Positions 12,416 through 31,753 of a DNA stretch of 31,753 nucleotides are shown one piece after another. Each line of letters starts with the position of its first letter. The stretch's first letter is position 1. Source of the stretch: a virus (lineage: Duplodnaviria > Caudoviricetes); IMG/VR virus record IMGVR_UViG_3300038336_000119, positions 1-31,753 of that record, one strand, 5' to 3'. The position numbers were made by a program, and so were the translations under genes. The notes beneath the pieces are model-generated. The model saw nothing but the letters and a program-made list of their open reading frames with translations. It ran no database searches and was not told the origin of the DNA.

Positions 12416-12461
12416 ATCATCGCCGCCGGGGCCTGCGCGTTACATCCGCAACGGTGTGCGG
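12416..12461 (-). promoter_or_regulatory. Late promoter (PI-equivalent): CCGCA-N6-TGCGG, 24 nt, GATGAT -10
   Basis: Same motif and spacing as 20559-20604. Confidence 0.78.
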
Positions 12462-12512
12462 AGACGCGCCAGATCGAGCCTACTCAATGCTGCACCCGCC
12501 CGCTTGTGCCGG

Positions 12513-13016
12513 TCAAGCCCCGTCGCCACTGGTCGCAATTCGGGCAAGCCACTCGTTCACGGTTGCGATGATATTGGCGCGGTCGGTTTCGGAAAGCCCG
12601 ATGAAGGGACGCGCCGGAATCGCGCCCCAGGGGATTGGCCGACCGGAGGCATCTGCGCCGAATGCCCCCTTTGCCGCGCCGAACTGCATGACCGCAGCGT
12701 AGATCGCGCCTGAGCCGACCTCGACGAAATCCGCGCCCGCGCGATAGTCGATCGTCGAATGCAGTCGCCCGCTCGGCCCGAACAGCGGCCGGAAATCGAC
12801 CCTGTCGCCACGGCGGGCATACGCGTCGATCGTGGTTTCCGACTTTGGTGCCCAGGCGCCGCCATCGGGCGTCACGCCCTGGTCAAACCGCTGGCCGGTC
12901 TCATAGACCAGCTGCTCGCCGATTTCCTGCATCACCGGCGTCAGGTCCGCCATCGCGGCGCCCAGCCGATTGAGGATCGCGCTGACCTCGGCATCCTTGA
13001 GTTCGATGGTGATCAT
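12513..13016 (-). CDS. Virion morphogenesis / tail completion protein (Mu gpG family)
   Basis: RFDQGVTPDGGAWAP, YAAVMQFG and IPARPFIGLS motifs. Confidence 0.92.
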   Translation of the reverse strand: MITIELKDAEVSAILNRLGAAMADLTPVMQEIGEQLVYETGQRFDQGVTPDGGAWAPKSETTIDAYARRGDRVDFRPLFGPSGRLHSTIDYRAGADFVEVGSGAIYAAVMQFGAAKGAFGADASGRPIPWGAIPARPFIGLSETDRANIIATVNEWLARIATSGDGA

Positions 13017-13032
13017 GGCTATATTCCTTGAA

Positions 13033-13123
13033 CGGGTGGCGACCCTGGAAACCCGGAGTCCAGGATGCCGGTCGGGTTACCGATCGCTAGCACATGAGGG
13101 GACGTCCGGCCCTCCGTCACCCG
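13033..13123 (-). ncRNA. Candidate structured RNA: four-way cloverleaf with kissing loops
   Basis: Hand-folded stems P1-P4, and loop CCGGA complementary to loop UCCGG (see findings). Confidence 0.6.
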
Positions 13124-14346
13124 ATTTTCCCGAGCAGCAGTTGCAGCATGTCGGCCGCCAGACGGTTCCTGAGGGCACCAAGCTCGGGACGATATGCCGA
13201 AATGACCAGATTGATCAGACCTTTCGTCGGCTTTTTCACGAAGTAGTCCAGCGAGACGGCTACCTGGGCACCTCGGTCTGGCGCGCCCAGCAACAAGATC
13301 AGCTTGCCAGTCCTGTTATCGATCATCGCGGCACGCGGTTGGCGCAACAGCGCGGGTAGCCTGACCCACTGCTCCGAGGTGAGGGCGTCGCCAGCAAACT
13401 CGTGCCTCAAAGCCTTCGGGCCTACCAGCAGCCCTGGCTTGACCATGATCTCGGCCGAGACCGGCGCTCGACCCCCTGCAGCGAGCGCCTCGATCAGATC
13501 ATGGCCCAGCACACCCGCCAGCCCCGGTTCGTGCGATCCGCGCGCCTCGATGTCGGCAACCCACATCGGCCAAGAGCGGTCGATGATGTCAGCCATCCCG
13601 GTCCCGAGGTCAGATCCAATCCGGGCCGGAAGTGTCGCAATCTTCTGGGCACCGAGTGCCACCGTCTCAGCCACGCTCGCGCCTGGGGCATAGGCCCAGC
13701 CCTTGCCGATGCCGACCGGCGCGCCGGTCTTCGGATCAATCTGGTTCCAGTTGTCGGGCAGTTCCTTGCCGGGCTTGCCGCCGACGCGCCGGGCGCTGTC
13801 TTTGGAACGCGCACCGAACACCTTGCAACCGCAGCCCCAGCCGTTGGGCGGAAAATGCGCCGCCCAGAACGGGTGGTCCGCCTCGAGCACCACCCCATCC
13901 CACGAAAGATGGTCTAGCCGGGGGTGCGCGGCACCGCTGTGCTTGTAGACCCAGAATGCAAACCCGCCCGCCACCAGCTGGGCATGCCGCCCCGCCGCGT
14001 AGGAGGTCGCCATGTTGGTGCGATAGATCACCCGCGTGCGCCAGGCCTCGCCCTTCGCGGTGCCCTCGCCGGTCCAGCCGTGCCAGCCGTGTTTCTCGAC
14101 GATCCCGCGAAAATCCTGCCGGAAGCTCTCGAGGCTGGTGCCCTCGGCAATCGCCCGATCGACCGCCAGCCCGAGGTCGGCCAGCAGGTCGGCTTTCATC
14201 GCCCCCGCCACCATGAAGGCGCGGTCGTGCTCGCCCTGCCAGAGATCGTCCCAGCGCGCGGTGGACGCCAGCGTGCCGAGCCGCAGCCGAAAGGCCGCAA
14301 GTTGCTCGGCAAACGGGCGACGAAAACCGGCAGCGAGGTCAGGCAC
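13117..14346 (-). CDS. MuF (gp30) head morphogenesis protein with C-terminal extension (putative PBECR-type nuclease)
   Basis: AFMVAGA, IYRTN...YAAGR and HPFW..HFPPNGWGCGC MuF motifs, then ~155 extra aa. GTG start at 14346 overlaps the portal end. Confidence 0.9.
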   Translation of the reverse strand: MPDLAAGFRRPFAEQLAAFRLRLGTLASTARWDDLWQGEHDRAFMVAGAMKADLLADLGLAVDRAIAEGTSLESFRQDFRGIVEKHGWHGWTGEGTAKGEAWRTRVIYRTNMATSYAAGRHAQLVAGGFAFWVYKHSGAAHPRLDHLSWDGVVLEADHPFWAAHFPPNGWGCGCKVFGARSKDSARRVGGKPGKELPDNWNQIDPKTGAPVGIGKGWAYAPGASVAETVALGAQKIATLPARIGSDLGTGMADIIDRSWPMWVADIEARGSHEPGLAGVLGHDLIEALAAGGRAPVSAEIMVKPGLLVGPKALRHEFAGDALTSEQWVRLPALLRQPRAAMIDNRTGKLILLLGAPDRGAQVAVSLDYFVKKPTKGLINLVISAYRPELGALRNRLAADMLQLLLGKIG

Positions 14347-20612: not shown

Positions 20613-20984
20613 TCAGATCAGGGGAAGCTGGCGCGGATCGGCGGCACCCGGGCCGGGGCCATCATCGATCCAGCGGCGCACCGAGACGTCGCTCGTGTGC
20701 AATCTGCGGGCAATCTCGGCTTTGGGCAAGCCTTTTGCGTGCATCACGCGCGCCACCCAGGGCTTGGCGGTGGGCACCCGGCGCGGCAGGTGTTCGGCGG
20801 CGCGTGCGAGTGCTGTGGCGCGATCGAGCCCGACCAACTCGGCCAGCCGCCCGCGCCCCTTGGGATTGGCAGCAAGGTAAAGCTCGGCGCCACCGAAGGT
20901 CATCAGAAACTCGACCGCGCCCTCGATGCCCAGCACGCGGACGTAAGGCTCGACATGGGCGGGCGGGGGCGGCAGGTCACGCAT
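20613..20984 (-). CDS. Mor/C-family transcription activator
   Basis: LGIEGAVEFLMTFGGAELY dimerisation motif and C-terminal HTH (EIARRLHTSDVSVRRW). Last gene before lysis. Confidence 0.85.
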   Translation of the reverse strand: MRDLPPPPAHVEPYVRVLGIEGAVEFLMTFGGAELYLAANPKGRGRLAELVGLDRATALARAAEHLPRRVPTAKPWVARVMHAKGLPKAEIARRLHTSDVSVRRWIDDGPGPGAADPRQLPLI

Positions 20985-21579
20985 CGGCCACCGCCCCGAA
21001 ATGCGCGGTCTCGTTGCCCCAGACATCGTGCCCCGCCCAGGCCTCGCGCGCGAACAGCTCGGCGAAATACTGGCGCGGCAACAGCCGGTCGATCATCTCG
21101 CGCATCTCGACCGGCTTGCGCGAATGCTCGCGTCGGATCGCCTCAATGCTGTCGGGGATGTCTTCGGGCGCGAGGATCACGTTGCGCTCGGATCGCGATG
21201 CGATCTGAGGTCGACCGATCTTGCCGATCAGGTACGGCTCCGTGGACGAACGCATCACATAGCCGGTGCCCATCGCCACCTTCCAGTTCCTCGTCCGCTT
21301 CAGCCAGGAACCGCCGGTGACATAGGAAAAGCCCCATGCCTCCAACACCGCCCCCGCCACCATCAGGTGCGGCCAGGTCGACCAGAGAAACAGGTAGCAG
21401 TCCGGCCCCGCCAGTCGCGCGACCGGCAGCGCCTTGATCGTGTCGACATCGAGCGTGGCGTAATGCGCCTCGGGGCTCTTTGCATGCCCGGCGGCCGAGT
21501 GCATCACATAGGCCCAAGGCGGGTCGGCGAGGATCGCGCCATACCTGAGCGGCGAGAGCGGGGCGAAGGGCCAGCTCAT
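20977..21579 (-). CDS. MT-A70 family adenine methyltransferase
   Basis: ILADPPW, HYAT, LFLW, AWGF.Y, GTGY..RSSTE, REHSRKP, ELFARE and WGNE motifs. Confidence 0.93.
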   Translation of the reverse strand: MSWPFAPLSPLRYGAILADPPWAYVMHSAAGHAKSPEAHYATLDVDTIKALPVARLAGPDCYLFLWSTWPHLMVAGAVLEAWGFSYVTGGSWLKRTRNWKVAMGTGYVMRSSTEPYLIGKIGRPQIASRSERNVILAPEDIPDSIEAIRREHSRKPVEMREMIDRLLPRQYFAELFAREAWAGHDVWGNETAHFGAVADA

Positions 21580-30946: not shown

Positions 30947-31753
30947 ATGAACACGCCCCTGGCTCCCGTCGATCCTATTGCCCCAGTCGCGCCCTGGCTT
31001 GGCGGCAAGCGCAACCTGGCGCGGCGCATCTGCGCCCGCCTCGATGCCACGCCCTGCAGCACCTATGCCGAGCCCTTCGTGGGCATGGGCGGCATCTTCC
31101 TGCGCCGCCAGGCGCGACCCCGCGCCGAGGTGATCAATGACCGCGGGCGCGACGTGGCGAACCTCTTTCGCATCCTACAACGCCATTATCCGCAGTTCCT
31201 CGAAACGCTGCGCTTCCAGCTGACCACCCGCGCCGAGTTTAACCGCCTGGTCGATACCAACCCGGAAACCCTGACTGATCTCGAGCGCGCCGCTCGCTTC
31301 CTCTACCTGCAGCGCACTGCTTTCGGCGGAAAGGTCTCGGGCCGCAATTTCGGCGTGGCGAAGGATCGCCCCGGCCGCTTCAACCTGACCACGCTCGAGC
31401 CGATGCTCGAAGACCTGCACACCCGCCTCGCGGGCGTAGTGATCGAGTGCCTGGACTGGTCCGATTTCATCACCCGCTACGACGGCCCCGGCACCCTCTT
31501 TTACCTCGACCCGCCCTATTGGGGCTGCGAGGATGACTATGGCAAGGCGATGTTCACCCGCGCCGACTTCGCCCGCATGGCCGACCAGCTGGCGGGCATC
31601 AAGGGCCGGTTCCTGCTCTCGATCAACGACGTCCCCGAGATCCGCGCGCTCTTCGGCCAGTTCGAGATCGAAGAGGTCAAGGTTAGCTACACCATCGGCG
31701 ACAAAGCCGACCGCGCGCCTATGCGGACGGAATTGCTGGTTTCTGCTCGTTGA
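30947..31753 (+). CDS. Dam-family (D12 class) DNA adenine methyltransferase
   Basis: PWLGGK, YAEPFVGMGG, EVIND, FYLDPPY, FLLSIND and ELLV motifs. Confidence 0.95.
   Translation: MNTPLAPVDPIAPVAPWLGGKRNLARRICARLDATPCSTYAEPFVGMGGIFLRRQARPRAEVINDRGRDVANLFRILQRHYPQFLETLRFQLTTRAEFNRLVDTNPETLTDLERAARFLYLQRTAFGGKVSGRNFGVAKDRPGRFNLTTLEPMLEDLHTRLAGVVIECLDWSDFITRYDGPGTLFYLDPPYWGCEDDYGKAMFTRADFARMADQLAGIKGRFLLSINDVPEIRALFGQFEIEEVKVSYTIGDKADRAPMRTELLVSAR

Follow-up and report, generated by a model that had tools for sequence, protein, structure and literature searches.

A conserved tRNA-shaped RNA, antisense to the late operon of Mu-like phages, as a candidate immunity partner of the predicted nuclease domain of MuF

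The short gap behind the muF gene of a Mu-like provirus (a viral record of 31,753 nucleotides, analyzed at its full length and hereafter called the window) harbors a tRNA-shaped RNA belonging to a real, broadly conserved, and uninterpreted RNA superfamily, for which a function can be proposed by comparing sequences. According to the explanation that we consider rather probable, this RNA is a trans-acting tRNA-mimic immunity factor, which would bind and block the virion-carried C-terminal nuclease of MuF; the expression of the RNA, the activity of the nuclease, and the binding of the two are predictions from sequence data.

The late genes of the window lie on the minus strand and code for the terminase, the portal, MuF, gpG, the protease gpI, and the capsid protein gpT. 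The muF product, which combines an N-terminal MuF domain belonging to the head module with an exchangeable C-terminal tip, matches Pfam PF04233 (E 6e-11) and, under its cut-off, PF18819 (E 3e-5). The muF-gpG gap is 100 nt long and is filled by the cloverleaf element (Table 1). An earlier note on this DNA had described it as the only gap in the gene run; the gap is real, but the head module has a second one between gpG and gpI (12421-12512), which may hold a late promoter. Elsewhere, the window harbors methyltransferase genes at 20977-21579 and 30947-31753 (MT-A70 and D12-class adenine methylase) and an HTH gene (20613-21026) having a homolog in the host islands described below.

Table 1. Coordinates of the features in the window and their main characteristics.
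Feature	Position	Strand	Remarks
muF	13117..14346	-	409 aa; Phage_Mu_F plus C-terminal MuF_C/PBECR-type domain; start taken from P0001
gpG (Phage_tail_S)	12513..13016	-	Pfam PF05069, E 3e-30; first codons contain the predicted -35 box of the RNA
Predicted BECR-fold nuclease domain	13120..13575	-	5' border approximate
His315	13404-13402	-	Predicted helix 51-59 of the tip model
Ser383	13200-13198	-	Strand 117-126 of the tip model
tRNA-shaped non-coding RNA, class A, 91 nt	13033..13123	+	Cloverleaf is MFE and centroid; covariation
Acceptor-like stem, 5' strand	13033..13041	+	Pairs with 13115-13123; 9 pairs, one G-U
D-arm equivalent	13044..13064	+	Loop bases 13053-13057 (CCGGA) form the kiss
Anticodon-arm equivalent	13065..13093	+	Length and sequence variable, mostly tetraloop-capped, without anticodon loop (alignment A4, tetraloop count)
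T-arm equivalent	13096..13114	+	5-bp stem continuous with acceptor 3' strand; loop 13105-13109 (UCCGG) forms the kiss
Acceptor-like stem, 3' strand	13115..13123	+	No encoded CCA in the window
Predicted -35 hexamer TTGAGT	12997..13002	+	Within gpG codons 5-7
Predicted -10 hexamer TATATT	13020..13025	+	7 nt before the RNA; overlaps the gpG SD-ATG spacer

The earlier note had placed the RNA on the minus strand. While the sequence does contain its four helices at the stated coordinates, together with the CCGGA/UCCGG complement, the strand had to be changed, since the cloverleaf is not the predicted fold of the minus strand and all the strand tests favor the plus strand. On the minus strand another fold is preferred (-39.3 kcal/mol, z -0.70, with 49 of 200 shuffles as good), whereas on the plus strand the cloverleaf is both the MFE and the centroid structure (-44.5 kcal/mol, z -2.09, 6 of 200 shuffles as good); in L001 and L002, too, it is the MFE on the plus strand and not on the minus strand. 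The A-C mismatch in the first helix of the minus strand corresponds to a G-U pair on the plus strand, and only on the latter do the arms follow the tRNA order, with a 5-bp T-stem running straight into the acceptor strand. Moreover, GNRA or UUCG loops with two closing pairs were found in the antisense reading at 45 of 81 loci, against 10 of 81 in the sense one. In the antisense reading, G-U pairs exceed A-C pairs by 15 to 1 in the acceptor interior and the kiss, and by 22 to 12 over all helices, a test that leans towards the antisense strand, the rows having been chosen with G-U allowed. Two random 9-mers of the window would share a 5-nt complement with a chance of 4%; the evidence for the fold from the window alone is modest, and it is the comparison across homologs that makes the fold solid.

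The 3' acceptor strand overlaps the muF stop codon, and the RNA is antisense to the late operon and convergent with muF. Scanning 500 nt (12900-13400) retrieved a sole promoter-like site, TTGAGT-17-TATATT on the plus strand (0.2 expected), and no Rho-independent terminator. A TTG triplet 16-18 nt ahead of TAnnnT is present at 40 of 83 RNA loci and at none of 23 gapless loci. A TAnnnT box within 20 nt of the gpG start occurs in the antisense direction at 57 of the 83 RNA loci (39 at one offset), compared with 5 in the sense direction and with none of the 23 gapless loci, an imperfect control in that the stretch is coding there. In one locus, muF and the RNA are separated by an inserted DNA methylase gene (L313:3176-4116), and the RNA remains with its promoter at the gpG start. 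Of the readings that go with the earlier note, neither a type III-like co-transcription with muF nor an autoregulatory role within the late mRNA is supported: the RNA runs convergently to muF and has a promoter-like site of its own.

The T-arm pattern retrieved 19 viral matches, 17 of which (some of them duplicates) are the element behind a MuF tip and two are due to chance; a genome scan with the five kissing bases left free gave 46 loci, 23 carrying the element by reading and the others being chance matches. In the alignment of 33 distinct homologs, from which two long-armed copies were excluded, 95.3% of the cells pair, compared with 77.3% in the shuffles and 37-50% in the slid controls, and none of 500 shuffles reached this level. 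Double-sided changes affect seven of the eight acceptor pairs and two of the four pairs of the kiss (5 and 13 cells), which is 99% paired. The D-stem is paired at 83%, a value partly lowered by misalignment, whereas the T-stem was fixed by the search pattern, of which its invariance in alignment A4 is partly a product. A CCA triplet occupies the last three alignment columns in six of the 33 homologs. Thus, the covariation that the earlier note had proposed to look for does exist, both in the acceptor stem and in the loop-loop kiss. Searching 100 sources with the model built on the 33 copies yielded 29 matches at E <=0.0011, among them members whose T-loops differ, and model R1 matches the record once (E 6e-22, by construction). 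Searching Rfam with the window and seven relatives gave no match at the gathering score and one chance-level match (P37, E 1.3). In three loci (L252, L024, and L227), the RNA lies partly inside the last muF codons, so that reading frame and fold overlap.

The earlier note had stated that no immunity ORF is present here. A 33-aa frame does lie in the gap (13120-13019), although it is not conserved as a peptide. This raises the possibility that the gap encodes an immunity peptide of 30-40 aa, the fold being incidental: the frame overlaps the muF stop in the window, such frames exist in 17 of 24 class A loci (see below for the classes), and phage B3 has an annotated 32-aa ORF there. However, between the T-arm and the D-stem the frame is not maintained (distance mod 3: 11, 9, 4), the peptide sequences lose their similarity past the invariant arm, and only one of eight class T loci has the frame; this candidate was rejected, its probability being practically negligible. 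The B3 ORF (ORF34, 32 aa, L030:2434-2532) occupies the same place as the antisense RNA and is unlikely to be a real gene.

As regards the protein, His315 and Ser383 of the tip match the His plus Ser/Thr active-site pattern of the PBECR domains (Iyer 2017, PMC5512222, accessible text), which the same source reports for as many as 26% of polyvalent phage proteins. The match with PF18819 (MuF_C) scored 27.4 bits against a cut-off of 27.6, and six of 13 members match this family. The AlphaFold model of the tip has a mean pLDDT of 84. Foldseek did not retrieve any match to it in the PDB at E 0.001; in a wide structural search, 18 of the top 19 matches were BECR-type toxins, with weak Z values (3.6-5.4), the best being BrnT (Z 5.4, rmsd 3.3, 76 aligned). 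We take the families represented among the top matches to be BrnT, RelE/ParE, CDI toxins, and colicin D. The PDB sequence search returned only two rows (E 1.5-1.6), and PADLOC matched none of four proteins.

The presence of the RNA was then compared with the type of tip in 158 non-redundant muF loci, whose tips comprise three PBECR-type clades, other toxin-like tips, and short MuFs. The RNA profiles matched behind 93 of the 115 His-bearing domains, but behind none of the 12 His-less ones and none of the 31 short or other-toxin MuFs; out of the 127 PBECR loci in all, nine of the 12 lacking the His have also lost the gap. The Fisher P of 3e-8 for this coupling overstates the independence of the loci. 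According to the trees, the His was lost in at least three lineages of clade 2 and at least two of clade 1 (for which a quick tree was used), and JBD18 and Mu add clade 0 cases. Both these phages have neither the RNA nor the His, while B3 has both parts. Mu gp30 matches clade 0 at E 1e-23, without the His, whose loss was already reported (Iyer 2017, PMC5512222, accessible text), and overlaps gene G by 4 nt. The check suggested in the earlier note, whether the RNA occurs only with an extended MuF, thus gave the expected answer, the RNA being absent behind short MuFs.

The profiles missed 22 His-bearing loci, most of which have a closed antisense fold on inspection. Those without a clear fold include L222, which has no gap, L213, with a remnant only, and L031; L222, a close relative of the RNA-bearing L182 and L245, lost both the RNA and the last-strand Ser and kept the His. 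L008 and L168 are exceptions in appearance only: both have a class B RNA, shifted by about 1 kb in the former, where a methylase gene is inserted ahead of it, and by about 230 nt in the latter. The similarity of the RNAs tracks that of the tip (rho 0.63) and not that of the MuF N-terminus (0.16) or gpG (0.07); within clades 1 and 2, it tracks the C-terminus no better than the N-terminus, and adjacent parts can co-travel by linkage alone. The relatives closest to the window in the N-terminus have a different domain and a different RNA: L114 and L115, about 90% like it in this part, have a clade 2 tip and a class B RNA. Behind other toxin tips the gap is ORF-like, and MuF toxins have an immunity ORF behind their gene (Jamet 2017, PMC5576092, accessible text). 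Gaps of 160-330 nt with this appearance follow other tips in L143, L158, L166, L177, L218, L161, L211, L212, and L020, and are candidate protein immunity genes.

Four RNA profiles (leave-one-out) sort without any crossover, classes A and T with clade 0, class C with clade 1 (the PBECR3 tips), and class B with clade 2. This pairing, together with the covariation and the counts given above (93/115 versus 0/12 and 0/31), bears out the core of the earlier note: the RNA is tRNA-like and conserved, its elbow is a kiss, and it accompanies extended MuFs, being most plausibly the partner or antidote of their C-terminal domain. In class B the kiss is a distinct one; all of its pairs form in 32 of 32 copies, the middle pair, which is left free, being G-C in 13, C-G in 17, and U-A in 2, and 17 of the 20 viral matches of this class are behind a clade 2 tip. 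Phage B3 has yet another complementary loop pair, as judged by reading; sequence-only profiles miss divergent members, B3 included. An independent sample of 401 genomes gave 13 PBECR3 matches, nine of them assessable: four are class C, and inspection of the remaining five revealed other closed folds in the antisense direction, including one that has a T-loop and one that follows an open frame of 931 aa. In two intact prophages (L066:1298-1660 and L064:1331-1680), the space from muF to gpG holds a stack of as many as three RNAs, each of a different class.

Class T RNAs keep the UUCGA T-loop, and ARAGORN called a tRNA in five of 16 scanned loci, with inconsistent anticodons; the class T RNAs of L019, L167, L220, L240, and L302 received calls of tRNA-Arg, tRNA-Ala, or undetermined. 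It gave no call in the window. The plus-strand fold of the window RNA shares with canonical tRNA the order of the arms (acceptor, D, anticodon, and T), but not the 7-nt anticodon loop with a conserved anticodon, nor the UUCGA T-loop/GG D-loop. We therefore agree with the earlier note that it is not a canonical tRNA, given the lack of an anticodon loop, of a canonical T-loop, of CCA, and of an ARAGORN call in the window. The simplest history would start from the capture of a tRNA: its elbow would have been remade into a Watson-Crick kiss, and its anticodon arm would have turned into a free hairpin.

The tRNA shape and a promoter immediately available to the host polymerase might also be expected of an anti-defense decoy, soaking up a host tRNA-cutting defense nuclease or a tRNA-sensing protein, with the PBECR domain merely processing the RNA; phage tRNAs that counter tRNases are a precedent. 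We regard this as very unlikely, since there is no anticodon loop, the RNA class follows the clade of the phage nuclease, and host chromosomes retain the RNA. Even less probable, in our opinion, is a structural RNA like the prohead RNA of phi29, with an intermolecular kiss and a role in head assembly or packaging: its location in the head module, the covarying complementary loops, and the retention of gpT and gpI in orphan islands would suit it, but neither Mu nor JBD18 nor the short-MuF phages have the RNA, and the canonical T-loop that class T has at the same position favors an intramolecular elbow.

The RNA is often found without the nuclease, 13 of the 23 genome loci not being behind muF. 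In 17 assemblies (13 orphan or remnant, with a class A RNA, and four positive) the RNA was present in all 17 and the cognate tip was found in the four positives only, two of the 13 orphan assemblies having some other MuF; the orphan genomes are mostly MAGs, mostly incomplete, and were picked because the RNA was not behind muF. Several orphans are in small islands among housekeeping genes, with gemA, gpT, a split gpI, and a homolog of the HTH gene, and no muF, portal, or terminase was found in the stretches covered. These islands have RNA arrays of one to three classes (A+B, A+C, or T+A+B), show a patchy identity of 65-80% in pairwise blastn with variable gene order, and could represent an undescribed satellite or a domesticated anti-Mu cassette. 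They recur at L301-L308, L347, and L348 (G004, G005, G009, G011, G012, G015, G016, and others). From 151 unselected genomes, six new matches were obtained, namely two islands, one copy behind muF, two lone copies, and one weak match. In many orphans the -35 position still reads TTG or TTGAC though gpG is gone; a strict TAnnnT box was found, within the stretch covered, in only five of 26 orphan or displaced copies, and downstream members of an array would need none. A Geobacter record (L311:4262-7453) has a single class A RNA in an RNA-repair neighborhood, immediately ahead of a gene for a Tpt1/KptA RNA phosphotransferase and with a Thg1 gene nearby.

These orphan and displaced copies bear on two further explanations. 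The first is a cis-antisense silencer (type I-like), in which the RNA, by pairing with the late mRNA where muF stops and gpG starts, would limit the leaky synthesis of toxic MuF, the tRNA shape only stabilizing it. The RNA is indeed convergent with the late mRNA, which it complements in full, and a promoter-like site of its own precedes it; given that no terminator was found, its transcript may run into muF, and it is lost when the His is lost. Orphan and displaced RNAs, however, have no overlap with the toxin mRNA (as in L008, 1 kb away behind the methylase gene), and such pairing needs neither a compensated tertiary kiss nor class-specific folds, so that we consider a silencer unlikely. The second is a cofactor, guide, or activator, MuF-PBECR and the RNA forming a packaged and delivered ribonucleoprotein directed, for instance, against host defense RNAs. 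From it the class-for-clade pairing and the joint loss are equally expected, and Y RNA, a tRNA-like RNA tethering a nuclease, is a precedent. Yet several classes are kept and stockpiled where no nuclease was found, non-cognate classes lie in tandem behind one muF (L064 and L066), and the variable arm is a closed hairpin rather than a guide-like strand; we consider a cofactor quite unlikely.

An intact tip is almost never without the RNA, a dead tip is never with it, and the RNA is often alone or stockpiled: this asymmetry is what would be expected of immunity genes, as known from polymorphic toxins. In the explanation that we favor, the RNA would fill the slot of the immunity ORF behind muF, and host sigma70 would transcribe it in the lysogen and right after DNA entry, independently of late transcription; its 3' end would be trimmed by host tRNA-type enzymes, no terminator having been found. 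It may then bind the nuclease as an L-shaped tRNA mimic without an anticodon loop, via its conserved T-arm, elbow, and core, and block the attack on host RNA, probably tRNA. MuF travels in the head, where it is thought to be present in two to three copies (PMC12226406, accessible text), and a recipient cell not expressing the matching RNA would be poisoned or stalled; hosts and phage-derived islands would gather several RNA classes as orphan immunity. Some data disagree with an immunity factor: the structural matches are weak and the Pfam match is just under the cut-off, and pure immunity does not account for the capsid and protease genes retained in the islands. Furthermore, PBECRs were held possibly not to cut host tRNA, with mRNA or CRISPR RNA proposed as targets (Iyer 2017, PMC5512222, accessible text).

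A more far-reaching version, which we put forward tentatively and do not hold to be the likelier outcome, is that of a widespread poison-antidote system: the phage heads would carry a tRNA-attacking nuclease, and a domesticated tRNA, whose transcription from the injected DNA would begin immediately, would act as the antidote, so that only DNA with the matching RNA gene survives delivery. Cells destroying the phage genome, and pirates borrowing its capsid, would in this case be punished, and Mu-derived satellites or host islands would respond with arrays of several RNA antidote classes.

In its proposed mode of action the immunity factor that we favor resembles the type III antitoxins, and in its position the MuF immunity genes, but it lacks features that define each of these groups, and those that define tRNA as well. 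In type III systems, the toxin stands alone and the antitoxin, made up of pseudoknots repeated in tandem, is encoded ahead of it on the same transcript, the two being separated by a terminator. As in these systems (ToxIN, CptIN, TenpIN), a structured RNA is the predicted direct antidote of an RNase toxin, with tandem units in some loci; here, however, it is downstream, antisense, tRNA-shaped, and usually single (a single copy in the record, with no ToxI, CptI, or TenpI match in Rfam), and a virion head protein carries the predicted toxin as its tip. With the MuF polymorphic toxins (Jamet 2017, PMC5576092; Apk2/IapK, PMC12226406; accessible texts) it shares the MuF carrier, the exchangeable tip, the partner slot behind the gene, cassette swapping, and orphan and stacked partners, but the partner is an RNA on the opposite strand and not a small ORF; the proteobacterial tips (Ct_MAD) were left without an assigned function in the accessible text of Jamet 2017 (PMC5576092). 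The relationship with the PBECR/MuF-C domains (Iyer 2017, PMC5512222, accessible text) is given by the weak MuF_C similarity of the window tip, by clade 1 being PBECR3, and by Mu gp30 falling in the clade of the window; the terms "noncoding", "non-coding", and "structured RNA" are absent from the main text of that paper.

Among RNAs, the acceptor, D, central, and T arms in tRNA order and the T-loop kept by class T liken the superfamily to tRNAs and tRNA-like RNAs, such as the bacterial Y RNA YrlA, tmRNA, and the viral tRNA-like structures, while the lack of an anticodon loop, the mostly missing encoded CCA, and the Watson-Crick kissing elbow of classes A and B distinguish it from tRNA. Two candidates in the supplement of Fremin 2023 (PMC10690425, accessible parts), DNAVirus_1035 and DNAVirus_615, of 76 nt and 62 nt and on opposite strands, have 33 instances within 25 bp of Phage_tail_S genes, in hosts including Rhodobacterales. 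They may be one class of this RNA, as matched by table rows and not by sequence; there they are anonymous rows, with no tie to MuF or a nuclease in the main text. Our literature search, which covered mainly openly accessible papers, retrieved none that links an RNA to MuF or PBECR, and the accessible texts of PMC5512222, PMC5576092, PMC12226406, PMC10690425, and bioRxiv 10.64898/2026.08.28.747851 do not mention an RNA partner.

If the immunity factor proposed here is correct, the unexplained C-terminal tip of Mu gpF-type head proteins would gain a function and the PBECR domains their missing immunity partner, and some annotated prophage tRNAs and small ORFs would turn out to be these RNAs. This, in turn, would imply a new kind of RNA antitoxin derived from tRNA, with a series leading from the canonical T-loop to a base-paired kissing elbow, and that bacteria stock arrays of RNA immunity.
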